A stretch of DNA of 64,000 nt from Pirellulales bacterium (GTDB lineage: Bacteria; Planctomycetota; Planctomycetia; Pirellulales; JAEUIK01), in NCBI GenBank assembly GCA_019694455.1, contig JAIBBY010000003.1, positions 597 to 64,596 of the forward strand. The letters run 5' to 3'. Shown here in pieces: positions 5,462 through 48,936 of the stretch. The first letter of the stretch is position 1; each line of letters begins with the position of its first letter. The notes below the pieces were generated by a model, which did no database searches, was not told where the DNA came from, and saw only the letters and a list, made by a program, of their open reading frames with translations. A program made the position numbers and the translations under genes.

Positions 5462-6358
5462 TCAGCCTGTCGTCCATGCTTCGCCGATGGCGAACTCTCG
5501 TTTGGCGTCGCGCGTCAATCGGGTGGCAGCGTAGCGCGGATCGTGGCTCCAAAAGACGACCCAATTGCCATCCGCCGCGCGCCCCAGCCAACGCGGCTTT
5601 TCGCGCCGCGTATCGAGCGGATAGAGGTCGTATGCCAGGCTCCAAAGCCGACGCAGGTGATAGGTGCTTGGACAAAGGTCCGTCAGGCACAGGCCAGTTT
5701 CGCCCTGCGATTCTAGCACCAGCGCCAAGTGTCCGCGTGTGTGTCCCCCGGTAACGTGCGCCGTCAGGCCGGCGACGATTTCGTCTTGATCTTCGATGAG
5801 CGCCAGCTCGACCTGATCGCGGAGCGGCGCCAGGTTTTCTTGGCTATAGGCGCCGCCCAGTTCATCGGCGGCGCTGTTGGCGTCTTCCCATTCCAGCCGT
5901 CCAATGACATGGCGGGCTTGCGGAAAGCTCGGAGCCACGCGCCCGCTTTCGTCACGATGACTGGCGCCGCCAGCGTGATCCCAGTGCAGATGGGTTAGCA
6001 GCACGGTGTCGATATCGGCGGGATCGACGTCGACTGCCTGTAGGCTCGCCATCAGCGGATTGCCGGCAGTCATCGCGTAGAACTTGCGGTCCAGCGGCGA
6101 AGCCTTGCCGCCGTAGCCGGTGTCGATGAGCACGGTTCGATGACCGTCGCGCAGCAGCAGACAATTGCAGGCGCACGGCAGGCGGTTCAATGCGTCCGGC
6201 GTGCGCGCCATTTGCCACAACCGCCGCGGCACCACGCCAAACAGCACTCCGCCATCCATTTGAAAGCGACCGCCGTCGAGCACATCGACGCGCCACTTGC
6301 CCACACGCAGGGTGACCGGCGGACTGATTTGCGGTGTTGACTGCAACGAAACGCTCAC
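5462..6358 (-). CDS. MBL-fold metallo-hydrolase
   Basis: HxHxDH motif 'THLHWDHAGG'. I placed the start at the in-frame GTG at 6358 so that it follows the upstream stop at 6378. The longer ORF to 6439 would overlap that gene. Confidence 0.75.
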   Translation of the reverse strand: MSVSLQSTPQISPPVTLRVGKWRVDVLDGGRFQMDGGVLFGVVPRRLWQMARTPDALNRLPCACNCLLLRDGHRTVLIDTGYGGKASPLDRKFYAMTAGNPLMASLQAVDVDPADIDTVLLTHLHWDHAGGASHRDESGRVAPSFPQARHVIGRLEWEDANSAADELGGAYSQENLAPLRDQVELALIEDQDEIVAGLTAHVTGGHTRGHLALVLESQGETGLCLTDLCPSTYHLRRLWSLAYDLYPLDTRREKPRWLGRAADGNWVVFWSHDPRYAATRLTRDAKREFAIGEAWTTG

Positions 6359-6377
6359 TGAGTGGCCCCCCTTGGGC

Positions 6378-21080: not shown

Positions 21081-21106
21081 CAGAAACAGAAAGGAAGCGC
21101 GTCATC

Positions 21107-29208: not shown

Positions 29209-29369
29209 GTCGCCCGAACGAGCGATTGAGGCGCTGTCTGGCGAAAGCGCTCACCACAGCGCCCTTGCCAGCCGACGCGTTGTCCCGCACATTGGTGGCT
29301 GAACCGTGATGCGCCGTATCCCATATCGGCGCGTCTTCATCCACACTCCCCAGGTCGATTGACTGATTG

Positions 29370-29867: not shown

Positions 29868-30641
29868 TTAGGCGTGGACCTGCACGCCGCTATCGACCGT
29901 CAGCGTTTCTCCCTGCACCATGTCCGACAGCGAGCTAGCCAGAAACAGCACGCAATTGGCAACATCGTCAGCGGTTAGATAACGCTCGCCGGTCATGTTG
30001 CGGAACTGTCGCCCCGCGAAGAGTTGGTCCGCATAGGGTATCTTGCGCGTGGAGTCGGTTTCCACGAGTCCGGCCCGCACCACGTTCACGTTGATCCCTT
30101 TGCCGCCCAGTTCCATGGCCAGGTGCCGCACGATGCTTTCCAGAGCGGCCTTGGAGCCGCCAATCAGGCCGTACAGCGGCAATGCCATGTTCGCGCCATG
30201 ACTCGACAAGGCGATGACCTTGCCGCGCCCCTCGCGCTCGTCGGTGCGCTCCAGCAAGTTAGCGCTTTGCTGCACCAGGTGCAATAAAGCCATGACGTTG
30301 GTCTTCATGGCCGCCTCGAAGTTGCGCGGGCTAGCCGACAATAGCGGTCGGAAGCCGCCCGTCGCGGCATTGCTCACCAAGATATCGAGTCGCCCAAATC
30401 GCTCCGCGACGAACTCGACCATGGACGCCACATCGTCCTGTTCGCTGACATCGGCCTTGACGACCGCGGCGCGGCTGCCGCGCGCCAAGATCAGGTCGCC
30501 GACTTCGCGGGCGGCGCTCTCGGAGGTGACATAGTTGATGATCACGTCGGCGCCTGCGTCGGCCAGCTTCAACGCGCAGGCCCTGCCAATGCCGCGCGAG
30601 CCCCCCGTGACAAGCGCCACGCGTCCGGTCAGGTCGATCAT
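29868..30641 (-). CDS. SDR-family enoyl-[ACP] reductase, FabL-like
   Basis: 257 aa from the ATG at 30641. Contains 'TGGSRGIGRA', and 'YGLIGGSK' is a Tyr-x6-Lys spacing typical of FabI/FabL rather than the YxxxK of ketoreductases. It begins 28 nt downstream of the PKS stop codon. Confidence 0.75.
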   Translation of the reverse strand: MIDLTGRVALVTGGSRGIGRACALKLADAGADVIINYVTSESAAREVGDLILARGSRAAVVKADVSEQDDVASMVEFVAERFGRLDILVSNAATGGFRPLLSASPRNFEAAMKTNVMALLHLVQQSANLLERTDEREGRGKVIALSSHGANMALPLYGLIGGSKAALESIVRHLAMELGGKGINVNVVRAGLVETDSTRKIPYADQLFAGRQFRNMTGERYLTADDVANCVLFLASSLSDMVQGETLTVDSGVQVHA

Positions 30642-30669
30642 GGAAAATGCTCCTTGATTGGTCAAAGTT

Positions 30670-33600
30670 CTAAATGGCTTTTTCGGCGGCGAGCACCGTG
30701 GTGTACTGCGCGACGTCGAGAATCGCGTCGCCGCTTTCGCCGTAGAGTGTGAAATCAAAAACGCTGTGCTTTTCGGCGCGACTGCGAAAATGGAACCGCA
30801 GCATGCACTTCTCGCCCGCGCGTGGCTGACGCGCCAACCGCAGAAAGCCGATGCGGTGCGGCAACTCCAAACGGCCTGAGAACTGCAGAAAAATAAAGCT
30901 GCCGCAGGCCACGACGCAGGCGTCGAGCACGGCGGAAGGAAAAACCCAACCCTGCTCGCCGCGCGGCCCAGCCAGTTCGGCGAGCGACGGCGCAACGATG
31001 CGGGCGAAGCCACCCTCATAATCAAAACTGAACTCTTTGAGCGCGCGCAGCTTGTGGCCGTGGTAGAGCAAGCCGTTGTCGGCATACACAAACGGCAGCC
31101 AACCGACTGCCGGCTGGTCCATCGGCGGCGCGGCCAGGTCAGTCTGGCGCGACCCCAATTCGACGCGGCCGCTGGCGCAGGCCCGCGCCGGATCGACCAT
31201 CAGTCCTTTGCGATTGCGCACTTCGACCGTCAGCCGGGCGTCGCGCTGTGGCCCATCGCCCGACAATCGCACATGCGCGCTGACCGTGCGCTGCGGTTGA
31301 CACTTGATGCCTTGCACAATCTCAAAATCGCGCACCGCCACGACCTGCTGCCCCGTGGCCGCGCTGGCGGCCTGCGCCATCGCTTCCAGCGCCAGGACGC
31401 CCGGCAAGAAGGGCGCGCCGCGCAAGGTGTGTTCGATCAAGAACGGGTCGACTTCCGGATTGAAGCGCAACTCGGCCACTGACGAATGCGGCGCTTCGCC
31501 CGCCTGTACGCTCGCAATCAAGGGTGGCAGCGCCGGCGGCGATTGCTCTTTGATCGTCGCGACCGTTTGTTCGCGTTCGCCATAGAACAATCCTTCAAAA
31601 TAGCCATCGGTGACGACCACCTCGGGCGTCGGCAGCGCTGCGGCAAGTTCGCGCTCGCAGTGTCGCACCCCCTCGGATGGCGAAATGTATTTCATGGCCA
31701 GCGAATTGCGATTGATTGGCACGCTGTCGCTAAGCATGGCCATGCCAATTTCGTCCCAGGTCTGCCAGGCGATCGAAGCGGTGGCGCAATCGGGGCGTTC
31801 GCCACGATGCCAAGATCCGAGCTTGGCCAGCACTTCGTTGGCGGCCGCGTAGTCGCTGAGACCGTTGCCGCCGTAACGGCCGCTGATCGATCCGAACGAC
31901 AAGAAATGCCGCACAGGATCTTGACGTGTCAGCGCCATCAGCGCGAGCGCGCCATCGAATTTGGGCGCGAGTGTGCGTTCGATCAGCGCTCGCCCCTTCA
32001 TTTCCAATCGCGCGCTCTTGGCGTAACCGGCGCCGTGGATCACACCCGCAATTGGGCCATCTTGCGATCGCACTTGGTCCAGAACGCGCGACAGGACCTC
32101 CCAATTCGAGACGTCGCACGAGTGGTAGGTCGCCGCGACCTGCGCCGCGCGGAACTTCTCGAGCGTGGCGTGAATCTCACGCCCCTTTTTCACGCGCGCC
32201 CAATCCTCCTCCGGCGAGCGACCATCGGCGACCGCGCGGCGGACAATTTCTTGTTTGATCTCTTTCAATCGGGCATCGTCCGCATCGAGCCAAGGCGCAT
32301 CGGCGGGTGGCAAGGGACTGACGCCAACCAGGTGCAACTTCAATCCGTACTTTTTGCCTAAATGCAGCGCAGTGGCCGCGGTGATTCCGCGTGCGCCGCC
32401 GGTCACCACCCAGACACTGCCGGGCGTGATCGAACAGGCGTCGCTGTCCGCAAGCTCGCGAGGAGTCACGCGCGTGGTAAATCGTCGCCCGGCCTGCCAG
32501 GCCACCTCAATCTCATGGGTGGCGGCGGCCAACTCCGCCACGATCGCCTCCCCCACCTGTTGCGGTGGTTCACTGGCGGCCAGATCGATTACCTGGCAGC
32601 GGATGGCGCGGTCTTTGCGGCGCGCCCCTTCGACATGCACCGACTTGACGAGCCCCGCCAAGGCACCCCCCTCCGGCGCGAAGCCAGTCGATGCGATGCC
32701 AAAGTCGCCCCCCAAATTCGTCACAGCGACCAGATTCGAATTAGCGGAAGACTGAATGCCGCTCAACCGCTTGAGCCAACGCTGAGTCACCAAGAAGGGC
32801 AGCACGATGCCGCGTTCGCGCCGCTGCCGAATGGATGCCGGAGTATCCAGCAACATGGCGTCGGGATCGCGGGCCGTGACCAGCACCAGGTGTGCGGCAG
32901 GTTCAGTGGACCACTGGGCATCAAGCCGGGCTAACACTTCGTCGATTTCGCCATCCAGCGCAGGATGCTGAACCGTCTCGCCGCGAGCCGTCAACATTTG
33001 AGCGATCGCATCGGCGTCGGCATTGTCGCCGAGGACGCAAACAGTCCCTTCAAGCGCCGCGTCACGCGATGCTCGATCCAATGGCGACTCCTCCAAGGTC
33101 AATACAAATCGGCGGGCGACATCGCCGCCAGACGAGTCAACCGCAGTCGTCTCTTCCGTTTCGTTCGTGGCGGAGGGCTCGAATGGATGATCGGCCGATC
33201 CGGGACCGTAGTAGCGTTCAAAGAATTCGCGACTGGTAATCAAGGCCTCGGTGTCATCGGCGTCGGCGGCCAATTCACGAACCAAGTGCGCCAAGCCATC
33301 GCGCTTCGGCATCAACTCCGGCGCGTCGGTCATCTGAAAGGTGGCTCGCGTTTCGGGACGATAGGCCATGCCCACCTCGTCCCAGGGATGCCAATGGAAC
33401 GTGATCGATCGCACATCGGGCCGTCGCGCGCGATACCAACCGCTCAGCTTGGCCAACATGTCGCTGGCAGCGCAGTAGTCAGCCTGGCCATTGCTGCCCA
33501 GCCGTCCGCTAATCGAACCGAAGCCGACGAAATGGCGGATTGGATCGGACTGGGTCAAAGTCATCAGGTTGTACGCCCCGGTGACTTTGGCGCCGAGAGT

Positions 33601-36600
33601 GGCGGCGACTAGCTCGGGGCTTTTCTTCTCAAATTTGCCGGAACGCTCTATGCCGGCGCCGTGCAGCACGCCGGTGATCGGCCCGCTGCGGCGGACTTGG
33701 TCCAACACGCGGGCCAGAGCCTCGCGATCAGTCACGCTGCACGTGTAATAGTCGAATGCGATGCCTGCGGCGCGAAACGCGTTCAGGTTCTTTTGAACCT
33801 CGATCGCCTTTTCCACTGGCGCCCAGGCGTCGGTCGGACGACGGCCAGCTTTTTGAGCCTCCAGAATCACCTGCGACTTCAACTCTCGCAGGCCGTTCTC
33901 GTCGAGCGTCAACCATTCGGCCGGCACATTAGGAAGCGGACTCGTTCCGAGCAAATGCAGCCGAACATCGTAGCGCTGCGCCAATTCACGCGCGCACTCC
34001 GCGGTGATGCCGCGCGCGCCGCCGGTAATAATCCAATTGCCCTGCGGCACGCGATCGGCGCGAGGCGCATCGGCCAAACGCGCCGGAATGGCGTTTTGCA
34101 AGTACCGGCGCTCTTTGCGAAATGCGACTTCGTAATCGATGGACCGCGCGGCCAGTTCGCGCAAGATATTCTTTGCGAGCGCTTCGGCAGGCTCATCGGC
34201 CGGGGCATCGATCGCCTTGACCAGCAGATTCTTCTGGTCGCGCATGATCTTGAACTCGATACAGAGCGCCTTGATCAGTCCCGCCAGCGCTCCCCCTTCC
34301 GGAGAGGCGGTCTGACCGCCAAACCCAAGATCGCCGCCGTGACATGTCAGCGCGACGACGGTGGAGCGATCGAGCCACTTCTTCGCCACGGCCTGCGTCG
34401 TCCATGCCTGTGTTAAAAAGAAAGGCGCCACCACCGCCGATTCCAAGCGCGCGTCGAACTGCGCGGGATCGCCCATGTCGGCGCTGGTCGCATCGAAATG
34501 CGACAGCAAGAACAAATGGGCGACCGGGCCTTGGGCCCAGAATGCCTCGATCTGTTGCCGCATCTCCGCCAGATTGCCCATGCGGGTTATTCGATGCACT
34601 ACGGCGCCCGTCGCCCGGCATTGCCGCGACAACGCCTCGGCAACTGGATTGTCCCCCACGATCAATGCGGCGCCTTGCCACACCGGCGCGGCCGGCGTGT
34701 TGGCGGCGAACGCCATAGGGATGGTGCGCATGGTGAACCGCATACTCTCCAGCGGATCACGCGGAGTCGACGCGATGGTCGGTGGCGACTGCTTGGGCGT
34801 TTTGGCCGCGCGACCGTTGACGCTTCCGGCCGTTGGCCGTTTGGGTTCGATTCGCGCCTTCCAATGGTCCGGGAGACGAGTCGACTCCTCGCCAATCCAC
34901 AGGAGACCTTTACCCGGATCAATGACCACCGAGAGGTGTGACCAATCCTCCCGCCGGTCGGCGACCGCAATGGCGACTTCTTGACGAGCGACCGTCGCTT
35001 CGGCGCGACAGGCGTCGCGCACCAGATCGGCCACGGGATAGTGTCCGGCCTGCGCTTGAGTCGCCAATGCCTCCCAGCGCGAGCGTGTCGCAGCGAGCGG
35101 CGACGCATCGATGCCGAGCGCCACCACCAAGACATCGTCGGCGGTTTGCGCGCTAGTAGCGGACGGGTTTTGATAGTGAATGGCCGTGGGCGCGGCGCTC
35201 CCTAGCAAGATTCCGACCGAAGGTGATGCGTCAGCCGCCTCCAAGGCGCTGGCGACGTCTCGCCCGCGAGTCAGCGCCCGCGCGACAGTGCGCGCCCAGC
35301 CTTCCGCTGGCGCCTGACCCGGCAGTGGCGCGGCGCTGGCGGTCAACCCCTCCGCGTTCACGCCGGCAATGCCGCCGACTGTGCCCACAAGTCCTACCAG
35401 CGCGTGTTCGACTCCCAGGAGCGGCTGGCGAATGAACACGGCCGGCTGCAGCACTTCGTCGAACGCGGCCATTAGGGGCCCAGTCCATGCTGCGGCATGC
35501 AAGAGCGACGTATCGCTCGCCTCGCGCGCGGCGAACTGCAGGCTGGATTGGCCCACATCCACAAATGCCGCGTTTTGATGCGCCATGATGCCCGCCAGCG
35601 GAACCTCTGCTCCGTCAGCGATACCTTGCAGTTCGTCCAGCTCCTGATCGGTGAAACGCTGCTGCGAATCACCACCTGCCGGCCCGACGCACGCCAAGTC
35701 CCCCAGATCGGCATATGTCCGCAATATCTGGCGGATCGCTCGCCGATAATGGCGACCATGGGCAAGCCCCATCTCATACGGCGTGCCAGTTTGCGCCACG
35801 GGCTCACATGCGGTCGGCGCCGACGGCGACAGATCGTAGGTCGGTGGCAAAACCGAATCCTCAATCGTCACCGCCGCGGGTGGCGCGATGGTGTCGGTCG
35901 CGCCGACCGCATTCTCAAAAGGGTGGGCAGTCGCCTCCCCGTTCGTTTCATGGCCGCTCATGCTGGCCGCAAACGGTGCAGACGCTCGAAATGGCACGGT
36001 GCGAAGGAAGTCGAGCACGTGCCGCAGCGTGGGAAACTGGTCGAGGGTCAGCTCCTCTGTCGGCACCACATCGAAATACTCCTGCAACTCGCCGAAGAGC
36101 TGCGCCTTCTTGATGCTGTCGATGCCGAGATCGGCCTCCAGATCGGCGTCGAGCTCCACCACTTCCGGCGGATAGCCCGTTTGCTCGACTACGAAGTTGA
36201 TTAAGAAGCGTTCCAGCTCATCGACGTTGGGGGCATGAGCGTTGGCCGCGGCAGCCGGTTGTGGCGCCGGCCCGGTAACCGGAGGCGGCTCGGCCTGCGG
36301 CGCGGCTGCGCTCTCGGACAGCGACAAAGACGCCGTCGCCCGAATTGGCACGGTGCGAAGAAAGTCGAGCACGTGTCGCAGCGTGGGGAACTGGTCGAGG
36401 GTCAGCTCCTCTGTCGGCACCACATCGAAATACTCCTGCAACTCGCCAAAGAGCTGCGCCTTCTTGATGCTGTCGATGCCGAGATCGGCCTCCAGATCGG
36501 CGTCGAGCTCCACCACTTCTGGCGGATAGCCAGTCTGCTCGACCACAAAGTTGATCAAGAAGCGTTCCAGCTCATCGACGCCGGGCGCCGCCGGAGCTGC

Positions 36601-39600
36601 TGCCGGCGATGGGCTCGCAGGCGGAGCAGGTGTCGGCGCTGTCGACCGTGAGGGCGCAGCGGCCGCAACCTCGTCCAGGCCGGCGCCTTTCATTGGAACC
36701 GTGCGGAGAAATTCGAGCACGTGCCGCAGCGTGGGAAACTGATCAAGCGTCAGCTCTTCTGTCGGCACCACATCAAAATACTCTTGCAGTTCGCCAAACA
36801 GTTGGGCCTTCTTGATACTGTCGATGCCGAGATCGGCCTCCAGGTCGGCGTCGAGCTCCACTACATCCGGCGGATAGCCCGTCTGCTCGACCACGAAGTT
36901 GATCAAAAAACGCTCCAGGTCGACAGTGCTTGGCGCCTTGGCGACAGGTGCGGGGTGAGGCGTAACGGCATGCGGCGCGTGACCATTTTGAGCCACCGGC
37001 GCGGCAGGCGCTGGGCGTGGTGGCGGCGGCGCGGGTGCAGCCGCTTGAGCTACCGGCTTTGGCGGAGCGCTGACAGGCGCAGCGGTCCGAGCCGCACGCG
37101 CGCCGCCCGATTGGGCCGTCTGTCGCATCCGCTCGCGGCGACGCGTGGTGGCGTCGAATGCCAACAGCGGTTCGCGACGCGGTGGCCGCGCCCCCCTACC
37201 GCCAGGCAAAGGTTGTGGTGATCCATGCTCCATATCAAAAACTCCCATCACCGATAGGGCGGCCCGAACTTGTTCAATCTGCTCCAGCCCGAGCCGCTTT
37301 GGCTGATCGCAAGCAATCGCAACTTGGTCTGTTGAATCGAGAATGCGCCGATGCAAGCCGCTCAGCACCTGCTGCGGCCCCACTTCCACCAGCACGCATG
37401 GCTGGCCGGCGCTCACCGCATGAACCAGATCGACATACATCACCGGCGACGTATTGTGACGCGACAGATTGTCGCGAGCCTCGTCGGCGGTGGTCACCGA
37501 TCGGTTGGTGACGACGCTCCAAAACGGCACGCGCGGATTTGAGAACTGCGCCTCGGCCAGCGCTCGTTCCAAAGGCTTGCCCGCGGGCGCCATCAATGGT
37601 GTATGAAACGGCGCCGGAACCGCCAGCAACTTCGCGCCGATGCCGGCGCCCTTGAGAATGGCTTCAAAGCGAGCGAGATTTTCCGGGGCGCCGCCAACGA
37701 CTGTTTGGTCGGGGGTGTTGACGTTGGCGACATGGATCGCCAATCCTGCTTGTTGGGCAAGCTCGGCTACCCGCTGAGCGGAACCGCCCGCGGCCAACAG
37801 GCCCCCCTGCACTCTCGCCGCGGCGATACCATCGCAGCGGGCGCGCGTCAAAGCGATGGCGGTCTCGATGTCGATCGCGCCGCTGGCGGCCAGCGCCGAG
37901 TATTCGCCGAAGCTATGTCCCAGCACCGCGTCGGGGACGATACCAACGGATTGCACCGTCCGAAACATCACCCAATTGGCGATCAGCATCGCTAATTGAG
38001 TTGGCCACACTTGCTTGCCCATGGCGGCGCTGTCGCCCCAGGCAAGATCGGAAAATGACTGGTATCCATAGCGCTCCAGAATCGCTTCTACTTCGTCTAG
38101 CGCTTGTCGCGCGGCCGGCGATTGCTCGACAAGAAGCTTGAGCATTCCTGGGTACTGCGAACCTTGCCCCGGAAAGCAAAAGACAACACGCGGACGCGCG
38201 CGCGGTGTTTCACTCAGATAGATCCCTTGTTGGCGCAGCACCGCCTGCCCGGCAGGCGATGATCCCTGCTTGACGGCGAGTTCCAACTTGGCAGCTAGCG
38301 ATTGTGGAGTGTCGGCGACAATCGCTGCGCGGAAGCGATCGCTCAACCGGAAGAGTCGCTCGCTGCCCTGCGCGAAAAGTTCCGCAGCCCGGCCGCAGGC
38401 GGCGGTCAATTCGCTGATCATCCCTTCTGCCGAGTCCGCTGCGAAGGTAAGCACGCGCGAACCGACCACGCTGGGATCGACCGGAATAGCAAACGGCGAT
38501 GCCGCAGCGGGCTTTGACGCCGGACTCGGCTTGGCGTTCGTAACGTTGGCGGACTGTTTGACGCTGGTCTTGCCGCGGGCCGGCTTGCCGACCGCCTTGC
38601 CCGACTCGATCAGCACATGATAGGTCAGGCCGCGCGATCGCGAACACACGGCCGCCAAGGCGCCTTCGCTGGCGATTTCGGCAACCGATGTTTGAGAGGT
38701 TGGCGTAGTCAGCCCATCGGACGCGATGGGCTGACGGACATCGACCGGCCTTGGCAAGATGCCGCGATCCAATTCCAAGCTGGCCTTGATCAAAGACGCC
38801 ATGCCGGCGGCGGCCTCAGCATGGCCGATCTGCCCGGCGACGGAGCTTAACATCAGCGGCCGAACGCGATCGGCGACCGTGTGTAACTGCGAGAGGGTGC
38901 GCAGTTGGTCGGCGCCTTCGTCCACACTCATCGCCCCGTCGACTTCCATCAGGCCGATATCTGCAGCGGCGCGATCGGCGGTGGCTAGCGATCGCTCGAT
39001 CGACACCCGCAGCGCCTCGCCCGCGCTCGCATGGTGCGCGGCGCCGATGCCGCGAATGGTGGCCACGATGGGGTCGCCATCGCGGCGCGCGTCGGCCAAT
39101 CGCTTGAGCAGCATCACCCCCACCCCTTCCGCCGGCACGTAGCCGTGCGCGGCCTGATCGAGAGGGGAACTCGGGGTGCCGTCGGCGCAGAGAGCGCCGT
39201 TGATCGCCAATCCTTCGTACTCCGGCAGCCCTAAACGTCGCTGCCCGGCCGCGCAGATCATCATATCCACATCGCCACACAACAGCGCGTCGACGCTCAC
39301 CGAAAGGGCCGCCAGCGACGAGCAATGACCACTATCGATGGCAACAGCGCCCCCCATTAAGTTCCAGGTCTTGGCCGTCCGTGAAGCGAGCGAGCTAGTG
39401 CTGAAGCTCCCCGTTTCATCGATCAACGCTGGCCAATTGGCGAGCAGACGTTTGTCGTACTTCTTTTGGATTGTCTCAATTCGATCGGCTGCGGCGCCAC
39501 CGTCGCGCAAGATGGCCGCGATGTGCCGCTTGAGTTCTGGCAGGCGCAGGCCCATTTGCAATTGGAAGGCGAAATCGCCGCCGAACTCGGTGCCGACCAC

Positions 39601-41556: not shown

Positions 41557-41559
41557 GTG

Positions 41560-43020
41560 TCACGCGGCCTGCGGACTGAGTTGCCCCGTTAAACTCCCCA
41601 TCGCGTCGAGCAAATTGCGGTGGAGCGCGGACGGCGCCTCGAAGACCAGTTTGCCTGCGGCCAAGGCGTCGGTCGCCGCGACATCGCCGCGCGACAATTG
41701 TTCGAGTATGTGCGCGTTCACATACACCAGACCGACGGCATCTTCTGAGAAACCACGTTCGGCGCCCACGATCTCGCTGCCGCGAAGCAGCAGGCTCCAT
41801 TGCCCGCCACCGCGGCCCGACACATCGAGCGAAACGCGCTGGTCGGCGTTGGCCGCTTGATTGGCGCTGACGAATCGCGACAACAGTTCCTGCGCGTCGA
41901 ACTCAAACTCGATCTTTTCGTGCTTGGGCGAGGCAAAGTTGTGCTCAATGGGATAACGCGCGATCGTCATCATTTGATCGTAGTCCATGACCGGACATGG
42001 CAAGTGCGACAGCACGCGACTGGAGTGCGTGAGGTCGAATTGCGGATCGTCGCGCCAGTGAGATTCGTAAATCTGCATGTGGTGGTGGAACAATTGTTCG
42101 CAGGCGGCCAAGTCGCGCGGATCGGCTTGGTTGGCGGTGGTGCGCTTGGAGTACTTGCGGATTGCGTCCTGCGTCACGCTCTGAATCAATCGAACGCTCA
42201 CTGGCTGCGGCGACGCAAGGTGGTATGTGCCACCGTGATAACGGCGGTTGCGAATAATGTGCAGCATGCCCGCTGCCACCCAATCCACCGGCACAAAGTT
42301 TTTTCCTTCGTGGCCTTGCAAACCGAGCCGAGCAAAAAACCGCTCGCCCATCTCTTCGGGCGGTATTCGGCCCGACATCGTGTAGGCCAATTGCAGCGGC
42401 AGATAGAAACCGTGATAGCTCGTGGTGTAGCCAGTGCGCGAGTCGCCGACGATGCTGGCCGGCCGATGCACAGTGCAGGTTTCGAAACCGCGCACTGAGC
42501 GGACCGCCTTTTCGGCGGCGAGTTTGCTGGCCTCGTACACATTGCCAGCTTCTTGCCCCAAATCGAGTTCGGTTTCTAGCACACGTCCGGTGCGCACACC
42601 ACACAGATAGGAGGTCGACACATGATGAAAGTGTCGGACGCCGGCCCGCTGGCACACCTCTAGCACTCGACGCGTGCCTTCGGCGTTGGTGCGGTGCGGC
42701 TCGCCATCTGGCTGCGCGCGAAACACCAGGCTGGCGGCGCTATGGACCGCGGTATGCACATGCGAGCGAAGCCAAGCCAGATCGCCCCCATCCAGGCCCA
42801 AATCGGATTCGCGCAGGTCACCTTCCAGAATCACAGGTCGCCGCATCGAGCGCCCCGCGATCCCTTCCCAACGTTGCACAAGCGCTTCAATTCGCTGGCG
42901 TGCGGTGCTTAATTTGCCCGGGCGTACGATCACCGCCAGGTGCTCGCCGCCCAGTAACAAATCGCGCATTAAATAGCGACCCAGCAACCCGGTTGCGCCC
43001 GTCAGCAGCGTATATGACAT
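41560..43020 (-). CDS. Stand-alone thioester/fatty-acyl reductase (NAD-binding SDR-e) with an SCP2-like C-terminal domain
   Basis: 'MSYTLLTGATGLLGRYL' is the Rossmann motif, and 'YEASKLAAE' is YxxxK. The C-terminal ~110 aa ('QWSLLLRGSEIVG...LSRGDVAATDALAAGKLVFEAP') follows an SCP2 pattern. The stop lies 4 nt before the PKS ORF. Confidence 0.8.
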   Translation of the reverse strand: MSYTLLTGATGLLGRYLMRDLLLGGEHLAVIVRPGKLSTARQRIEALVQRWEGIAGRSMRRPVILEGDLRESDLGLDGGDLAWLRSHVHTAVHSAASLVFRAQPDGEPHRTNAEGTRRVLEVCQRAGVRHFHHVSTSYLCGVRTGRVLETELDLGQEAGNVYEASKLAAEKAVRSVRGFETCTVHRPASIVGDSRTGYTTSYHGFYLPLQLAYTMSGRIPPEEMGERFFARLGLQGHEGKNFVPVDWVAAGMLHIIRNRRYHGGTYHLASPQPVSVRLIQSVTQDAIRKYSKRTTANQADPRDLAACEQLFHHHMQIYESHWRDDPQFDLTHSSRVLSHLPCPVMDYDQMMTIARYPIEHNFASPKHEKIEFEFDAQELLSRFVSANQAANADQRVSLDVSGRGGGQWSLLLRGSEIVGAERGFSEDAVGLVYVNAHILEQLSRGDVAATDALAAGKLVFEAPSALHRNLLDAMGSLTGQLSPQAA

Positions 43021-43281
43021 AAGAAATGAAAGTCCTGTTGCCCGTTGACTCAACGCTGCCTGGCCGATCATCGGCGGACGGCGCGTGGCTAGTGCTATCA
43101 AGCACCGTGCTAGCGGTCGTTTATAGCGACATTAAGATAATAAAAATACAGCGATTGAGAAGACTGGGTATATTGAGTCGCGAATTACACGCTTCCGCCT
43201 CATGTGCGAATTGATACCACAGCGGTCGCTCAGCAATCGGCGCGATCCATCGAATTGGTTGCCATTTGAACCAAGCTCCAT

Positions 43282-45669
43282 TTGCGTGATGCCATTTCCG
43301 GTGAGATTCCATTGAGTTCCCACGAAAACAGAAAATCTCGGCGATTCGCATTTTGGACCGTGATCCTGTTTGCACTTGGTGCGCCGATCGTCTTTTCGGG
43401 AATGGTACTTTCACTGAGCCAAATGCAGAACGATGTCACGCAGTGGCTACCAGCGGAGTATCCCGAAACGCGGGAGTTCGTCCGCTTCCTTCAGCACTTC
43501 GACCCCGAGGCGTTCGTCCTAGTGAGCTGGGAGGGCTGCACGCTGGATGACCCGCGTGTGGCGCGCTTTGCCGAGGGTCTGGTCGGGGCGCCCAGCATCG
43601 AGCCGGGCGCCACGCGTTCTCCTTACTACAGCAAGGTCATCACCGGTCCCAGCATGCTGGAAACGCTAACCAGCACGCCTATCAATCTGACCCGCGAACA
43701 GGCGATTCAACGCTTGCGCGGCTCGTTGATCGGCCTGGATGGGCGCACGACCTGCGTCGTATTTTCCATGACTCCAGAAGGCGTTGCGCACATGCGACCT
43801 GCCATCGACGCCTTATACGAGGTAGCCCAGCGTGAGTGCGGCCTTACGCAAGCGCAACTCAAGCTCGGTGGACCACCGGTCGACAATGTCGCCCTCGACG
43901 TGGCGGGCGAGCAGAGCATGCTGCGCGTGCTTGGGCTGACTTCGGTTTGTGGTCTCTTGGTCTGCTGGTGGTGTTTGCGCCATCCCTTGTTGATTGCGGT
44001 GGTGTTGATCGCCGGGTTTTACACGGTGGCGGCAAGTTTGAGCGTCTTCTACTTCACGGGCGGGGTGATGAACGCGATTGTGCTCACCATGCCCCCCCTG
44101 GTTTATGTGGCAGGGGTGTCCGGCGCTATTCATCTCGCCAATTACTATCGCGAGGCGCTGCCCGAACACGGGGTAATCGACGCGCCGTGGCAAGCGGTGC
44201 GGCAGGCCACCTTGCCGCTGCTGTTAGCCACTTTCACCACGGCCGTAGGGCTACTCTCTCTAGCCGCCAGCGAACTGGCGCCAATTCGGACGCTCGGCAT
44301 TTACTCGGCGATTGGGGTGTTCATTGGTCTGGGCTGCATCTTGTTGTGGGTGCCTGCGGTGCTGGAACTTTGGCCCGTCGTCGAGCGGCCGCGCCAAACT
44401 TCGGCAATCCACCGGAGAGGGCTCGACGGATCGCAATTGACGCGGCTGGGCGCCGCCTACCCCAAGTTGGTCACGGTATGTGTCCTGGTTCTGCTCGGCG
44501 GCGTGGCCTGGGGTGCGACGCGCTTGGTGTCGTCGGTGCAAATCATGCGGCTGTTTTCGCCCGATGCCAAGATCATCAGCGATTATGCCTGGTTGGAAGA
44601 GCGACTCGGCCCGCTCGCGCCGATCGATGTGGTGGTTCATTTCGCCCCGAACTGCGCGCTTGATCTTCGGCAGCGGATTGAATTGGTCGAGGACTTGCAA
44701 GGCCGCGTCAACGAGTTGGAACATGTCGGCAGTTCGTTATCCGCCGCCACCTTCGCGCCCGATTTGCGCGCCATCGCTCGGCCGCAGAGCGGCACGGCAT
44801 CGATCTTCAATCGCAAGCGCATGCGGCAAACCGTACAAAAGGTTCGGCTCGAGCGACATCGCGCCGATTTTGTGCGATCGGGATTCTTGCGAGATGCGGA
44901 CGGCGGAGAGCTATGGCGAGTCACGGCGCGCGTTGCCGCTCTCGCGGATGTCGATTACCACGCGTTTACGCAATCGCTCGACGCCGCCGTGCAACCGCTC
45001 GTGCGCGGCCTTCAAAAACGAGGTTTTGATGGCGTGTCGGTAACCTATACCGGAGCGCTGCCGATTGTCTATCAAGCGCAAAACTCGTTGCTGCGCGGCA
45101 TGCTCATTGGCTATGGCAGCGACGTGGCCTTGTTGGCAGTGGCAATGGTCGTGGTGATGAACAGCCTGTCGGCGGGGCTCATTTTGCTCGCCGCCAGCGT
45201 GTTGCCGGCGCTGGCGGTGTTTGGCGCCATGGGTTGGCTAGGCATCGTGGTCGACATGGGAGCGGTGATGCCGCCCAGTGTGGCGCTCGGAGTCACAGTC
45301 GACGACGTGATGCATTTTCTCTTGCGCTACCGCGATGGCGTGCGCGCGGGGCAATCGCGCCGCGATGCGGTTCTCGAAGCGTATCATCATTGTGGCCGCC
45401 CCATGTATCAAAGCTGGGCTATTCTCGGGCTGGGAATCTTGGCCTTCGCCTTCAGTCCCTTTTTACCAACGCGTCGATTCGGCTACGTGATGGTGGCGCT
45501 GTTGACGGTCGGGCTGATTGGCAACTTATTGTTCCTCCCGGCCCTTTTATGTGGTCCGCTGGGACGGCTCTGGCAACGGTCGCTGTTGAAGCGGTCTGAA
45601 ACGCGCCGGACCGAGCAGGAGCAAGCAGAACCGGCGCCGGCCGTTTCCACCGTGGCGGCCGTGCGCTAA
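43282..45669 (+). CDS. MMPL/RND-superfamily transporter
   Basis: 795 aa with two blocks of about 6 TM helices, each preceded by a large loop. The start is uncertain: TTG at 43282 or TTG at 43312. Confidence 0.8.
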   Translation: MRDAISGEIPLSSHENRKSRRFAFWTVILFALGAPIVFSGMVLSLSQMQNDVTQWLPAEYPETREFVRFLQHFDPEAFVLVSWEGCTLDDPRVARFAEGLVGAPSIEPGATRSPYYSKVITGPSMLETLTSTPINLTREQAIQRLRGSLIGLDGRTTCVVFSMTPEGVAHMRPAIDALYEVAQRECGLTQAQLKLGGPPVDNVALDVAGEQSMLRVLGLTSVCGLLVCWWCLRHPLLIAVVLIAGFYTVAASLSVFYFTGGVMNAIVLTMPPLVYVAGVSGAIHLANYYREALPEHGVIDAPWQAVRQATLPLLLATFTTAVGLLSLAASELAPIRTLGIYSAIGVFIGLGCILLWVPAVLELWPVVERPRQTSAIHRRGLDGSQLTRLGAAYPKLVTVCVLVLLGGVAWGATRLVSSVQIMRLFSPDAKIISDYAWLEERLGPLAPIDVVVHFAPNCALDLRQRIELVEDLQGRVNELEHVGSSLSAATFAPDLRAIARPQSGTASIFNRKRMRQTVQKVRLERHRADFVRSGFLRDADGGELWRVTARVAALADVDYHAFTQSLDAAVQPLVRGLQKRGFDGVSVTYTGALPIVYQAQNSLLRGMLIGYGSDVALLAVAMVVVMNSLSAGLILLAASVLPALAVFGAMGWLGIVVDMGAVMPPSVALGVTVDDVMHFLLRYRDGVRAGQSRRDAVLEAYHHCGRPMYQSWAILGLGILAFAFSPFLPTRRFGYVMVALLTVGLIGNLLFLPALLCGPLGRLWQRSLLKRSETRRTEQEQAEPAPAVSTVAAVR

Positions 45670-45682
45670 GCGCCGGGTCGCG

Positions 45683-46999
45683 TCAGGTTCGACTTTGCAA
45701 CGTTTGCTGAATCCGCTCCATCAGGTTGTCGGCTAATTGGTCACGTTCAGCGCTGGTGAACCAAGCGGGGTCGCAACGCACGAATAGGCCCAGTCGACCA
45801 GCGTAGGTGAGCGCCACGACGGCCAGACGAGTGCCTCGCCGCAGGGGCGCCGTACCCGAGATTCCCTCCAAGCGCAGGCCGCCACATAGTGCGCGGCCGT
45901 CGTCTTGCGCGTGCGGCCATTGAGAGAAGACGGGCCCCACATTACTGAACACCGCCGTGGCGAACGACCACTGCCGGCGCAAGAACCAATCGACAATCCC
46001 GCGCGACTTGCAGGCGATCTTTAGTCCGCCTACGAAATACAAGCCAATTCTCCAGCGTTTAATGGCGGTAGTCTGCCGCTGAATAGCTCGCAGCAAGGCG
46101 GTTCGGTCCGCCATCTGCTTTGGCTTCCGCGTCACGAAGGCGAAGCTCAGCACGTTCGCCACTGGCATTCGCCAATCTTCTTTCTGTCTCAGGTTGGTCG
46201 GCACCAGGATTCGCAATCGGCCGCGCTTCAGTCCGTGGTCGCGGTTCCAATCGGCGAGCGTCAGCAGCAGATCGCGCAACAGCAAATCGTTGACCGTAAC
46301 CCCTATTTCATGCGCGATCTCCACCAGTGAGGCCGATTGCTCGCGGCGCAACCACTCAGTATGGAAACTGACCGACTGACCACTGCCGCCACTCGCCGCG
46401 GGTTGCGCTGACGCCACGACCGCTGCCCGGCGTGAGACCAGTGGCCACCAGGCTCGTACGGTATTGACTCCATCCATGAACGTGGGCTGATAGTCCGCCA
46501 GGCCATATTCGTCTCGACGGGCCAGACTTGTGGCATCCAGCTCTCGCCACTGTGGCTCCCCCGATTTGCCATCCACAACATGCGCATACGCCAGCAACAA
46601 TTCTTCGGCGAACAGCAACGCAGCCAGACCATCGGAGCAGGCGTGATGAAACACAAGCCAAACGATCGATTGCTCTGCCGCCGTGTCCACACAAACACGT
46701 AGCCCGCCGGCCGTGCAACCTGTCAAACCAAGGCAATCGACCAGCGGCGCTTCGCCAGGGGCGAGTTCCACAACCTGCGGGGCGTCGCCGGCAACCCAGA
46801 CGGGCCAACGACCACTGGCGTCGATGCGCGCCGTTAGTAAGGGATGGCGCACAAGCGATATTTGGAGCGCGATATCCAGGGCCGATCGATCTAGCGCGCC
46901 GGACAGTTCCAATCGCACCGGAAAGATCGGCGGATACTCCGGACGATCGTCGGCCAGGTAGTAATACTCGAAGGCCGTCACCGGCAGCGGAAGTATCAC
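45683..46999 (-). CDS. Condensation-domain-type acyltransferase (PapA/WS-DGAT-like, HHxxxDG)
   Basis: 438 aa from a GTG start. The catalytic motif 'FHHACSDGLA' is present. Confidence 0.75.
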   Translation of the reverse strand: MILPLPVTAFEYYYLADDRPEYPPIFPVRLELSGALDRSALDIALQISLVRHPLLTARIDASGRWPVWVAGDAPQVVELAPGEAPLVDCLGLTGCTAGGLRVCVDTAAEQSIVWLVFHHACSDGLAALLFAEELLLAYAHVVDGKSGEPQWRELDATSLARRDEYGLADYQPTFMDGVNTVRAWWPLVSRRAAVVASAQPAASGGSGQSVSFHTEWLRREQSASLVEIAHEIGVTVNDLLLRDLLLTLADWNRDHGLKRGRLRILVPTNLRQKEDWRMPVANVLSFAFVTRKPKQMADRTALLRAIQRQTTAIKRWRIGLYFVGGLKIACKSRGIVDWFLRRQWSFATAVFSNVGPVFSQWPHAQDDGRALCGGLRLEGISGTAPLRRGTRLAVVALTYAGRLGLFVRCDPAWFTSAERDQLADNLMERIQQTLQSRT

Positions 47000-47100
47000 G
47001 TCGATTGCGCACCTGGACAGTGAAATGCGGACACAGCGCCGTACCGCGTGGTCGTCATCATACTCAGATGCGCTGGCCTATGCGGAGAATCCACTGGCCA

Positions 47101-47146
47101 GAAAAAAGAGTGTCTCCACGCGGCGGGGGTCGTGCCGCGTGGAGAC
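47101..47146 (-). terminator. Intrinsic terminator (proximal to the acyltransferase gene)
   Basis: A perfect 13-bp stem, gtctccacgcggc/gccgcgtggagac, with a 9-nt loop. On the minus strand it is followed by ACUCUUUUUUC. Confidence 0.6.
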
Positions 47147-47206
47147 GGCGCTCGTTAGGAGTCTGCTAACTCTCCCTGCTTGCCGCCGAGCGCGGGCGGA
47201 GAATGC

Positions 47207-47245
47207 TAAAAAAGGCCGGCAGATCCGGTCGACTGGATCTGCCGG
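47207..47245 (-). terminator. Intrinsic terminator (distal)
   Basis: A perfect 11-bp stem, ccggcagatcc/ggatctgccgg, with an 8-nt loop. On the minus strand it is followed by CCUUUUUUAG. Confidence 0.6.
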
Positions 47246-47358
47246 ACGGGGACGGAGTCGCTAGATCTTCGTACCCCTCTATTAACTAAGACGTGTCGCG
47301 TCGGCTAATTCGGACAAGATTTCGCCAAGTTTTTTGCGGAACGGTAGATTTTTTCGCA

Positions 47359-47389
47359 CGCGCGATCGCGCGGTGACCATTAATGGTCA
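47359..47389. promoter_or_regulatory. Two abutting perfect palindromes: CGCGCGATCGCGCG and TGACCATTAATGGTCA
   Basis: Read directly from the sequence. They lie about 80-110 nt upstream of the hydrolase ATG at 47470. Confidence 0.3.
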
Positions 47390-47469
47390 GAATTGATTCC
47401 CTAAATCACGCGACCGGAAAACCTTGCTGAAGGGCTGCGAGCAGTAGAATTCCAGACTCGGAGACTGTA

Positions 47470-48936
47470 ATGGCCAACTTCGTCTTTCAATTCACCGCAG
47501 CAATCGCCATTACCCTGATTGCCAACTGCGCATTGGGGGCCGAAACCGCAGAGGCCGAAGGCGGGACGCCGGCGCCGAGAATCACCCGCGCCGACCTGGG
47601 CAGGTCGTACCTCCGCCTGGAACAGGTCTATTTTTCCAATCTGCCCGACGAAGCTGAGCATATCGCCGGCATCAACAAGGTCTTTGACAAATCGACGCTC
47701 GCGTTCTTTGGCGGCAACTTCGCCGGCACTCTACGCGTCATCGATCAATTGTCCGCGGAGCTACTGGCGGGCCCGTCGCCCGAATTGTTGGCGGCCATGG
47801 CGTTACACGCCGATTTCGATCCCCCAGTACTGACACTGGACAGCGATCGCAAACCGCAGTTGAACCTGCGCATGCTCTATGATCCAGAAACCAGGTCGGC
47901 GACATCAGTTCGACTCACAATGCAGGGACTCTTCAATGCGTCCCTTGATATCAATGCGGAAAATCGACTTTCGAACAGCAGCTTTGATCTCTCCACGTTG
48001 CGCGATCGGCTGCAGCCGGGAATCTACGAACTCAAGGCCAACACCAAGGAATGCGAGATCGTCGTCGCGCGCTGGATCGTGGTCGATCGATCCCTCGATG
48101 AGATCCGGCAGGACAATGAGGAGCGGTTGGCGAAGTTGCACGCGTCGACGCCCGCCATCGAAGCGGCGATTGCCGCCTGTAAAGACCGCAACGAACTGCT
48201 GACCAATAGCCCGTCGACTGAAAAATCGGCCCAGTTCAACACCGACTTAAACGCGCTGGCCAGCGACGTTGCCATCGAGATTGGTACCCTGGAAAAAGGC
48301 GCCGACCCGTACCGACTGCGCGCTGGAGACTATTGGCGGACAGTGCGTTCGGGCGACCGGTCGATTCCGCTGCGAGTATTCGCGCCTGACAAGTGCCAGG
48401 AGGTTGCCTGCCCGTTGATCGTGGCGCTGCACGGCGCGGGCGCGGACGAAAATATGTTCTTTCAAGGATACGGCGCCGGACGTATCAAGCAATTGGCTGA
48501 ACAGCACGGCGCGATTGTCGTCACGCCTTCGACCTATGCCATGGCGTCCAATGGCGACCACTTCGATGCCCTGCTGACTGCGCTCGCGCACGATTACGAC
48601 ATCGACTCGCGGCGAGTTTATGTGCTGGGACACTCCATGGGAGGCGGAGTGGCCGCAAACCTGGCCGCCACCAAGTCGAACCAGATTGCCCGCGCTTGTT
48701 GTCTGGCGGGCTATCGCGTTCCCAAATCGGAGAAAATGTCGCCCACGTTGATTATTGCCGCCGAACTTGACGGAGTGGTGGCAGCCGCGGGACTTGAAAA
48801 GAGCGCCCAGAAATCGGTCGATATCGGCCTACCCGTGGAACTGCGCGTGATGCCAAACTACGGCCACACACTAATGGTGGGAGTCGCGCTGCCTGAAGCG
48901 ATCGATTGGCTTTTCCAGTCAGATGCGACACCGTAA
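47470..48936 (+). CDS. Secreted alpha/beta-hydrolase (esterase/peptidase S9-like C-terminal domain)
   Basis: N-terminal signal-like 'FTAAIAITLIANCALGA'. The nucleophile elbow is 'VLGHSMGGG'. The N-terminal ~300 aa are unassigned. Confidence 0.7.
   Translation: MANFVFQFTAAIAITLIANCALGAETAEAEGGTPAPRITRADLGRSYLRLEQVYFSNLPDEAEHIAGINKVFDKSTLAFFGGNFAGTLRVIDQLSAELLAGPSPELLAAMALHADFDPPVLTLDSDRKPQLNLRMLYDPETRSATSVRLTMQGLFNASLDINAENRLSNSSFDLSTLRDRLQPGIYELKANTKECEIVVARWIVVDRSLDEIRQDNEERLAKLHASTPAIEAAIAACKDRNELLTNSPSTEKSAQFNTDLNALASDVAIEIGTLEKGADPYRLRAGDYWRTVRSGDRSIPLRVFAPDKCQEVACPLIVALHGAGADENMFFQGYGAGRIKQLAEQHGAIVVTPSTYAMASNGDHFDALLTALAHDYDIDSRRVYVLGHSMGGGVAANLAATKSNQIARACCLAGYRVPKSEKMSPTLIIAAELDGVVAAAGLEKSAQKSVDIGLPVELRVMPNYGHTLMVGVALPEAIDWLFQSDATP

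Follow-up and report, generated by a model that had tools for sequence, protein, structure and literature searches.

A conserved gene cluster of Planctomycetota with a PUFA-synthase-like polyketide synthase, a stand-alone thioester reductase and a putative long-chain lipid product

We have analyzed a stretch of 64,000 nt (the window) of a Pirellulales bacterium (GCA_019694455.1, contig JAIBBY010000003.1), and specifically the locus found at positions 29868-48936. The ORF coordinates that a first-pass annotation had given for this locus were confirmed, and its gene and domain calls hold up by Pfam, NCBIfam and motifs. The center of the locus is a minus-strand operon that codes for a stand-alone thioester reductase (TR, 41560..43020), an iterative type I polyketide synthase (PKS, 30670..41556) and an SDR (29868..30641). 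The maximal ORF of the PKS has 3628 aa, the size originally assigned to the megasynthase, although comparison with the gene as called in a near-identical contig puts the true start probably at Met45 (nt 41424).

The domain order of the PKS is KS, CLF-like KS, AT, three ACPs, a domain similar to isopenicillin N acyltransferases (IAT/AAT-like), KR, KR and DH. Pfam and NCBIfam detected two ketoacyl-synt/Ketoacyl-synt_C regions (E=1.8e-102), Acyl_transf_1, three PP-binding stretches, two KR didomains and PKS_DH_N/PS-DH; by Pfam there was no Aminotran_3 domain within the protein. When aligned with FabF, KS1 (40183..41403, aa 52-458) has the Cys, His and His catalytic residues in place. In KS2 (38587..39939, aa ~540-990) the equivalents of His303 and Lys335 are gone (Asp stands in place of the first His and Ala in place of the Lys) and the Cys has shifted (GHCSS), and therefore we consider it CLF-like. 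They are followed by a FabD-like acyltransferase (37318..38184, aa 1125-1413) with the GHSFG motif (Acyl_transf_1 E=3.7e-35, TIGR00128 180 bits) and by the three tandem ACPs (35977..36924, aa ~1545-1860), each with the motif LGIDSIKKAQL. Beyond the IAT/AAT-like domain (34852..35814, aa ~1915-2235) come the first KR didomain (33187..34764, aa ~2265-2790; Pfam KR E=8e-32), with TGGARGIT and the catalytic Tyr in GQADYCAAS, and the second (31567..33114, aa ~2815-3330; E=3e-28), with TGGARGIT and YAAAN. The protein ends in a PKS-type dehydratase (30673..31524, aa ~3345-3628; PKS_DH_N E=1e-10, PS-DH weak), whose HTLRGAPFLP, read from the sequence, fits HxxxGxxxxP. The best NCBIfam match of the whole PKS was the PfaA model TIGR02813, at 988.3 bits just below the cut-off of 1010.

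The SDR starts 28 nt past the PKS stop codon and has the Y-x6-K spacing (PLYGLIGGSK). Its top NCBIfam match was FabL (NF005975) with 251.6 bits, under the equivalog cut-off of 328, and Pfam gave adh_short_C2 (E=7e-57); by these scores it is FabL-like but no FabL equivalog, and a predicted trans-acting enoyl-ACP reductase. The TR matched NAD_binding_4 (PF07993, E=4e-40, 138 bits for a cut-off of 20.1) and has the motifs TGATGLLG and YEASK, which fit TGxxGxxG and YxxxK. The match to TIGR01746 was of 108.6 bits, under the cut-off of 213, and the nearest solved structure was the MxaA reductase 4U7W (E=4e-14). The C-terminal extension of the TR is weakly SCP2-like, SCP2 being matched in 7 of 18 family members. 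The system had been classified as a "secondary lipid" PKS, iterative and of the PUFA-synthase/hgl class, that is served by a trans-acting ER and a stand-alone TR, and this was sustained. As noted before, the window ORFs scanned included no PPTase, PfaD-type ER, FabA-type DH or classical thioesterase. There was also no NRPS in the window, and the operon neither contains nor adjoins a glycosyltransferase gene; the nearest one is a truncated GT1 ORF at 21-827.

Divergent from the TR, across a 180-bp intergenic region, an MMPL/HAE3-type RND transporter is found on the plus strand (43282..45669; Pfam MMPL PF03176, TIGR00921 HAE3). Converging on it is the minus-strand gene of a stand-alone condensation-fold acyltransferase (45683..46999) of the PapA5/WS-DGAT/NRPS-C superfamily, with weak Condensation/PapA_C matches and an HHxxxDG motif (HHACSDG) at aa 118-124. 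An AF2 model of this protein (pLDDT 92) gave the two-lobed condensation fold, with Foldseek TM-scores of 0.63-0.68 to 1Q9J and 0.72 to 8S6L. Its sole NCBIfam matches were the PapA5 and WS/DGAT models, PapA5 (NF006787) with only 46.3 bits, far under the cut-off of 396. The profile of the family is equally close to PapA5 (ester-forming) and to NRPS C/E domains (amide-forming), and neither Foldseek nor profile searches separated these two kinds of relatives. A secreted alpha/beta-hydrolase (47470..48936, plus strand) follows, PHB-depolymerase/esterase-like by Pfam and NCBIfam, with GHSMGG and a signal-peptide-like N-terminus.

In order to see which of these genes belong together, we compared about 130 related loci, every named one from Planctomycetota. 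Across them TR-PKS-SDR is a fixed core, with the MMPL and PapA-like genes recurring alongside. The TR was directly upstream of the PKS in 43 of 43 genome loci, wherever the sequence downstream of the TR was present, and the SDR directly downstream of the PKS in all 17 informative metagenome loci, plus L028, L129 and L132. Among the first 46 related loci, 12 have the transporter gene adjacent to the TR, an arrangement seen also in L127, L128, L130 and L131. Orthologues of the condensation enzyme adjoin the MMPL gene in these last four and in L046, and the SDR gene in L047, L048, L049 and L056, which gives a PapA-like gene beside MMPL or SDR in at least 10 loci. Synteny thus links to the PKS both flanking genes that had been proposed to be part of the locus. 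The hydrolase was syntenic only in a 98%-identical strain and absent in L046, L127, L128 and all the other loci; we have rejected it as a cluster member on these grounds, and it is probably outside the system. A PPTase lies between PKS and SDR in most relatives but is missing from the window. Lignipirellula cremea (CP036433.1) has a single co-directional operon of PKS, PPTase, SDR, TR, aminotransferase, AMP-ligase and condensation enzyme, while Planctopirus limnophila carries a TR-less sister cluster (PKS-PPTase-SDR-GH3). The cluster family is present in many Pirellulales and Planctomycetaceae, cultured carriers being, besides these two, Bythopirellula polymerisocia (L021), Bremerella and Blastopirellula marina. 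The locus is one layout of a lipid-building cluster that is widespread and conserved in Planctomycetota.

The survey also pointed to genes outside the locus. At 5462-9196, 21 kb from the PKS operon, the window contains a minus-strand cassette that codes for a HemL-like class-III aminotransferase (7844..9196; Pfam Aminotran_3 E=1e-63), an AMP-binding acyl ligase (6378..7862; Pfam AMP-binding) and a metallo-beta-lactamase-fold (MBL) hydrolase (5462..6439; Pfam Lactamase_B). These three are the most frequently conserved TR-PKS partners in the relatives, in most of which such a cassette precedes TR-PKS. Given the distance, their linkage to the operon rests on orthology and on synteny in other genomes. 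The aminotransferase is 57-64% identical to copies directly upstream of TR-PKS in 13 loci, the ligase about 48-59% in about 20 loci and the MBL hydrolase 50-64% in 20 loci; these values (about 48-64%) are at or above the 44-53% of most TR copies. In L. cremea the aminotransferase gene adjoins the TR. A housekeeping HemL was considered and rejected on this synteny and on the score of the hemL equivalog TIGR00713 (369.8 bits, under the cut-off of 527); the best solved relative was 4ZM3, deposited as "Aminotransferase", ahead of all GSA aminomutases. The best solved structure for the ligase was FadD13 of M. tuberculosis (E=8e-42), a (fatty) acyl-CoA synthetase. The MBL hydrolase is YtnP-lactonase-like, with 194 bits for the NCBIfam YtnP model, under its cut-off. 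The locus is then not "self-contained" as first described: these partners had been missed, and the PPTase is absent from the window.

We tentatively propose, as a reading that falls somewhat short of an even chance, that the cluster works by aldehyde release, transamination and acylation to give a long-chain amide (or ester) lipid, a chemistry that we deduce from the domains detected. The KS and the CLF-like KS would extend the chain on the three tandem ACPs, with malonate loaded by the AT, and the two KRs, the DH and the trans-acting FabL-like ER would reduce each unit, leaving a mainly saturated chain with perhaps one or more hydroxyls retained. The stand-alone TR would then free it from the ACP as an aldehyde, to be turned into a primary amine by the HemL-like aminotransferase. 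The FadD13-like ligase would activate a fatty acid, and the HHxxxDG enzyme may transfer the acyl group onto the amine, or onto a hydroxyl. The resulting two-chain amide (or ester) lipid would be carried to the envelope by the MMPL/HAE3 transporter. A TR plus a transaminase has been described as the general route to polyketide amines (PMC5365063). Against this route, the cassette lies far from the operon in the window, and none was found within 10 kb of the locus in the close relatives L044, L046, L127 and L128. Besides, the condensation-fold enzyme is as near to ester-forming PapA5 as to NRPS C domains, and the MBL hydrolase has no place in the scheme. TRs can also reduce aldehydes on to alcohols, as those of the Zmn14 type can (PMC5811116), and the long-chain lipids reported from planctomycetes are hydroxy fatty acids and not amines (PMC6995999, PMC3327967).

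Some of these points lead to other products. The first-pass annotation had proposed an alcohol that is then esterified, i.e., a four-electron TR giving a long-chain (hydroxy) fatty alcohol, a PapA5-like enzyme making a wax-ester or PDIM-like product from it and export by the MMPL protein, with the aminotransferase cassette unrelated or in a side role. The adjacency of TR, PapA-like and MMPL genes in the window, L046, L127, L128, L130 and L131, with the cassette not nearby, agrees with it, as do the NCBIfam matches of the acyltransferase, the further reduction by Zmn14-type TRs and the fatty alcohol made via a TR in the hgl pathway (PMC11804610). However, the cassette has been kept in the genome of the window, the aminotransferase gene shares the operon of the TR in L. 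cremea and is directly upstream of TR-PKS in many loci, and the acyltransferase profile fits PapA5 no better than it does amide-forming C domains. An alcohol and ester is somewhat unlikely; an amine and its N-acylation are better supported because of the TR-aminotransferase-AMP-ligase-condensation enzyme operon of L. cremea and the precedents of zeamine and of polyketide alkaloids.

The hydroxy fatty acids mentioned above suggest that the PKS might instead make the very-long-chain (omega-1)-hydroxy or dihydroxy C26-C35 acyl chains or diols of planctomycetes, the first beta-hydroxyl being retained as in heterocyst glycolipids and the tailoring genes attaching the chain to an envelope component. 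Such lipids have been reported for Lacipirellula parvula (Pirellulales) and for Gemmataceae, where part of them stays bound to the residue after extraction (PMC6995999, PMC3327967), the cultured isolate B. polymerisocia has the cluster, and a selective retention of hydroxyls fits two KR didomains. Nevertheless, acids were detected whereas a TR yields aldehydes or alcohols, and the reported chains bear an omega-11 double bond or a cyclopropane ring, suggesting elongation of ordinary unsaturated fatty acids, while the cluster has no FabA-type DH; we find this origin distinctly unlikely. The cassette could also act at the start of the pathway, loading an unusual starter (e.g., an amino or aromatic acid) on the ACPs, so that the TR product would be a functionalised polyketide and not a plain lipid. 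This use of the AMP-ligase is reminiscent of L065, a distant variant in which an AMP-ligase is found with an aromatic ammonia-lyase, an ECH and a second KS-ACP protein (a second PKS). ECH genes appear in 10 related loci, and the Bythopirellula-type loci L021, L022, L032 and L040 have a different AMP-ligase and a monooxygenase-methyltransferase fusion. But the ligase of the window is closest to the fatty-acyl-CoA synthetase FadD13, aldehydes are substrates of HemL-type enzymes and the aminotransferase gene of L. cremea comes directly after the TR, making a role in starter loading very unlikely.

There is a precedent for the amine route in zeamine, whose chain is made by a PUFA-like synthase, released as an aldehyde by a stand-alone TR and transaminated to a primary amine, which a stand-alone condensation enzyme then acylates (PMC5811116). 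All four gene types of zeamine II (Serratia/Dickeya, Zmn10-14 plus Zmn19) are in the window and share an operon in L. cremea. In a different phylum, the planctomycete system has one megasynthase with a FabL-type ER instead of PfaA/C/D-like subunits with PfaD, and its aminotransferase is free-standing and HemL-like while that of zeamine is a domain (AMT) in the PfaD-like subunit. It has an IAT-like domain and an MMPL exporter and no NRPS/PKS partner, the acyl donor probably coming from the FadD13-like ligase. The hgl synthase of Nostocales, whose product is a long-chain, hydroxylated fatty alcohol destined for the envelope, also combines a TR with a pfa-like set of KS, CLF, AT, ACP, KR, DH and ER (PMC11804610), as found here, and a PPTase and a dedicated exporter are also counted as shared. 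Yet the hgl domains are distributed among many proteins, with which no aminotransferase, AMP-ligase or condensation enzyme is associated, and neither the glycosyltransferase nor the HgdBC/DevBCA-type ABC exporter of hgl appears in or beside the operon described here. The planctomycete system has a single polypeptide with two KRs and an IAT-like domain, and an MMPL transporter.

With PfaABCDE the PKS shares the KS-AT-tandem ACP-KR-DH order and its best NCBIfam match, but it differs in the N-terminal KS-CLF fusion, in the FabL-like SDR as ER, in the lack of FabA-type DH, PfaD ER and PfaE PPTase among the ORFs scanned, and in a release that would be reductive and not as free acid or phospholipid. 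The PDIM system of mycobacteria (PpsA-E/Mas, PapA5, MmpL7) also joins a PKS lipid to an HHxxxDG PapA5-type acyltransferase and an MMPL-family RND exporter, and with them the idea of coupling transfer to export. However, the PapA5 score is low (see above), the PKS is of an iterative, pfa-like kind whereas Pps/Mas are modular, and the transporter is HAE3/HpnN-like, with no close relation to MmpL7. The gene set is accordingly distinct from the pfa, hgl and PDIM loci, as had been stated. The "Type J" cluster described from Planctomyces limnophilus (Shulse & Allen, 2011), a PfaD homologue plus KS-MAT-ACP3-KR, has an architecture different from that of the window locus, although it may correspond to the PKS gene of L132. 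In agreement with the first-pass annotation, no product assigned to the cluster was found in the literature searched. In Planctomycetota no type I PKS is known to have an assigned product; according to a 2025 review, the one BGC-targeted study so far dealt with a type III PKS (PMC12078418). That the cluster is conserved and has exporters of its own points to a lipid of the envelope more than to an occasional antibiotic. With the full gene set (PKS, ER, TR, aminotransferase, ligase, condensation enzyme and exporter), the "unknown T1PKS/hglE-KS" calls of antiSMASH become a specific hypothesis open to testing by knockout.

As to the IAT/AAT-like domain, literature searches for a C45/IAT domain inside a PKS gave nothing relevant. 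Although the stretch in the window had no direct Pfam match, a profile built from PKS-embedded homologues only matched PDB 2X1C, the Penicillium acyl-CoA:isopenicillin N acyltransferase (E=3e-13, residues 6-335 of 357), which upholds the AAT-like call. The homology to this peptidase C45 (Ntn-hydrolase) family is full-length, covering the whole alpha-plus-beta chain, with a GTPYEMGxxHG motif in the PKS-embedded domain, and PF03417 has a precomputed match in the P. limnophila orthologue and is also matched by stand-alone homologues. The assignment of the fold rests on these profile-sequence matches, since a structure model from an alignment of two sequences reached a pLDDT of only 31.7. Most family members have the Gly-Cys autoprocessing/nucleophile site; in the window domain, which differs also in being embedded in a megasynthase between ACPs and KR, it is replaced by Ser-Ser (GQSSLQFA). 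With Ser in place of Cys the domain is probably neither self-processing nor catalytic.

The nucleophile column is Cys in 88 of 135 aligned homologues, and its loss correlates with TR linkage: 5 of 22 TR-linked PKSs have kept the Cys, compared to 5 of 5 TR-less ones (10/10 counting truncated loci). We believe that the domain of the window is probably a relic, with its fold kept but its nucleophile lost, presumably because the TR took over chain release. These data reveal an IAT/C45-type domain inside PKSs in which retention of the catalytic Cys follows the absence or presence of a TR. Together with the amine route, they lead to a more speculative reading that, in all its parts, would be doubtful. 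The product would be an N-acylated very-long-chain (hydroxy)alkylamine, a ceramide-like two-chain amide of an undescribed class of envelope lipids of Pirellulales-type Planctomycetota, made without serine palmitoyltransferase by the PUFA-synthase-like PKS, the TR, the HemL-like transaminase and the stand-alone condensation enzyme and exported by MMPL or MacB, and TR-less clusters such as that of P. limnophila would off-load the chain by an active, self-cleaving Ntn acyltransferase (IAT-like) embedded in the PKS. Were it true, the latter would be a mechanism of chain release not known for any PKS. An exhaustive homology search was used for this domain after a word-indexed one, in which low-complexity linkers probably swamped the candidates, had given a single match, P0001. 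This sequence is an apparent frameshifted PKS fragment.

All six ORFs named by the first-pass annotation were found at the same coordinates, and profile searches upheld nearly all of its domain calls. In these searches the megasynthase (PKS, 30670-41556, minus strand) carries two KS regions, one malonyl-type AT and three PP-binding domains, plus a reductive part made of two complete KR didomains and a PKS-type DH. Its top curated match was PfaA TIGR02813 with 988 bits, just below the 1010 cut-off. Aligned to FabF, KS1 has the Cys/His/His residues; in KS2 the first His is replaced by Asp, the Lys by Ala and the Cys is displaced, and for this reason it was considered CLF-like. Read directly from the sequence, the two KRs retain TGGxxG together with the Ser/Tyr/Lys elements, and HxxxGxxxxP is present in the DH. 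The true start of the PKS is probably Met45 (nt 41424), judging from a 98%-identical contig. The SDR encoded downstream (29868-30641, minus) is FabL-like, with the Y-x6-K spacing typical of enoyl reductases. The gene upstream (41560-43020, minus) codes for a stand-alone NAD_binding_4 thioester reductase (TR), whose nearest relative among solved structures is the MxaA reductase; in 7 of 18 family members the C-terminal extension weakly resembles SCP2. Divergent from this operon is an MMPL/HAE3 RND transporter (43282-45669, plus), and the gene convergent on it (45683-46999, minus) carries HHACSDG and has the fold of a condensation domain in its AF2 model (pLDDT 92). The domain content is that of an iterative PKS of the pfa/hgl class that is served in trans by a FabL-type ER and releases its chain reductively.

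Synteny was searched with three proteins as anchors. With the TR as anchor we recovered 43 genome loci, all from Planctomycetota, the isolate Bythopirellula polymerisocia among them; the PKS comes next after the TR in every locus for which downstream sequence exists. With the SDR as anchor, this gene came directly after the PKS DH in 17/17 informative metagenome loci, in most of which an ACPS-type PPTase gene lies between PKS and SDR. The same placement of the PPTase is seen in most relatives (L047-L071, L129, L132); no PPTase was found across the whole 64-kb window, where the gap between PKS and SDR is 28 nt (30641-30670). On the other side of the SDR, separated by 12 nt and convergent on it, a 162-aa ORF (29367-29855, plus) belongs to no family and was not found adjoining the SDR in related loci. 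Among the first 46 related loci, 12 have the MMPL gene beside the TR. The closest clade (L003, L044, L045, L046) shares the divergent arrangement of the window, as do L127, L128, L130 and L131; at other loci a MacB-type ABC exporter takes the place of the MMPL. The gene for the condensation enzyme adjoins either the MMPL gene (L046, L127, L128, L130, L131) or the SDR gene (L047, L048, L049, L056). The secreted hydrolase (47470-48936, plus), which lies within the locus as first described, was excluded because it was beside the locus only in a near-identical strain.

Clustering all ORFs of the related loci revealed a gene set that the first-pass annotation had overlooked. The genes most often seen upstream of the TR-PKS pair code, in this order and on the same strand, for a class-III aminotransferase, an AMP-binding ligase and an MBL-fold hydrolase. 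The window has the three genes in the same order as these cluster-linked cassettes (7844-9196, 6378-7862 and 5462-6439 respectively, all minus). They are located 21 kb beyond the SDR, with a tRNA-Ser and an integrase element between. Their identity to the cluster-linked copies, about 48-64%, equals or exceeds that of the TR (44-53% in most loci). The aminotransferase is HemL-like, scoring under the HemL equivalog cut-off, and has the AMT domains of PKSs, for example that of MycA, among its relatives. The ligase most resembles FadD13, a fatty-acyl-CoA synthetase, and the MBL protein resembles the YtnP lactonase. In Lignipirellula cremea, whose genome is complete, a single co-directional operon PKS-PPTase-SDR-TR-aminotransferase-AMP-ligase-condensation enzyme links all these functions. 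Genetic linkage of the PKS is shown for four partners: the aminotransferase, the acyl ligase, the condensation-fold transferase and an exporter.

We would propose that the chain leaves the PKS as an aldehyde, which would be transaminated to a primary amine and then N-acylated, or possibly O-acylated, with a fatty acid activated by the ligase, the finished lipid being exported in the last step. This logic has precedents, and the chemistry is our proposal. In zeamine II assembly, which the proposed route mirrors, a PUFA-like synthase works with the TR Zmn14, a transamination step and Zmn19, a stand-alone condensation enzyme (PMC5811116); the route likewise follows the TR-plus-transaminase rule described for polyketide amines (PMC5365063). 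The long-chain alcohol, later esterified, that was proposed initially is also possible, as TRs can over-reduce and the condensation enzyme is equally close to PapA5 and to NRPS C domains. Another possibility is that the PKS product is linked to the very-long-chain (omega-1)-hydroxy fatty acids of planctomycetes, although this fits poorly with a TR. In the literature searched we found no assigned product for the PKS cluster. The system joins parts that are known (pfa-like synthase, TR, transaminase, C enzyme, MMPL) to one new domain, and their arrangement is new. It is valuable for planctomycete lipid biology and open to testing in cultured strains.

The new domain corresponds to PKS residues ~1915-2235, which have no Pfam match of their own and had been labelled AAT-like. 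An exhaustive search with this stretch gave 146 cluster representatives, most of them within PKSs of 2000-3600 aa and some as stand-alone proteins of ~350 aa matching PF03417. A profile made solely from PKS-embedded copies matched 2X1C, the Penicillium acyl-CoA:isopenicillin N acyltransferase, along its entire length (E=3e-13), and the Planctopirus limnophila orthologue has a precomputed PF03417 match; the AAT-like call was therefore right. Of 135 aligned family members, 88 have the Gly-Cys autoprocessing/nucleophile site; in the window it is replaced by Ser-Ser. The Cys is kept in only 5/22 PKSs with a TR directly upstream, whereas Gly-Cys is kept in 5/5 PKSs shown without a linked TR and in 5 more from truncated loci (Fisher's exact p=0.003, uncorrected for phylogeny). 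This distribution suggests that the IAT-like domain is the ancestral off-loading or transfer catalyst that decayed where the TR took over release. In the literature searched we found no PKS described with an IAT/C45 domain. The sole word-index match to the stretch, P0001 (a 549-aa protein from an NCBI genome contig of 3.96 Mb), shows good homology and then Arg/Pro-rich nonsense, and looks like a frameshifted or miscalled piece of an orthologous PKS.

Several loci depart from the organization of the window. That of the model planctomycete P. limnophila (CP001744.1; L132 10001-23987) reads PKS-PPTase-SDR-GH3 (acyl-acid amido synthetase family) and lacks genes for a TR, an aminotransferase and a condensation enzyme; the IAT-like domain of its orthologous PKS still has Gly-Cys. 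A more distant variant (L065 10826-20760) has PKS-SDR, then a TR and a second KS-...-ACP2 protein of 1232 aa, besides a condensation enzyme, an enoyl-CoA hydratase (ECH), an aromatic amino acid ammonia-lyase and an AMP-ligase, a gene set that suggests an aromatic acyl partner. In the Bythopirellula-type loci (L021, L022, L032, L040) the aminotransferase is replaced, upstream of the TR, by a luciferase-like monooxygenase fused to an O-methyltransferase, a FAD oxidoreductase and a divergent AMP-ligase (26-28% identical to that of the window). The conserved core thus consists of PKS-(PPTase)-SDR, and the sets for release and tailoring are exchangeable.

Elsewhere in the window, three ORFs of 649, 700 and 580 aa (23609-25558, minus; 53458-55560, minus; 56484-58226, plus) gave no Pfam match at E<=0.001. 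Between the cassette and the PKS operon there is a putative integrative element (15600-23069), which holds a DUF669 protein (18128-18658), a DnaB-like helicase (19587-20558), several ORFs without family and a tyrosine integrase (21668-23050, plus) whose end overlaps the tRNA-Ser(TGA) gene (22982-23069, minus).
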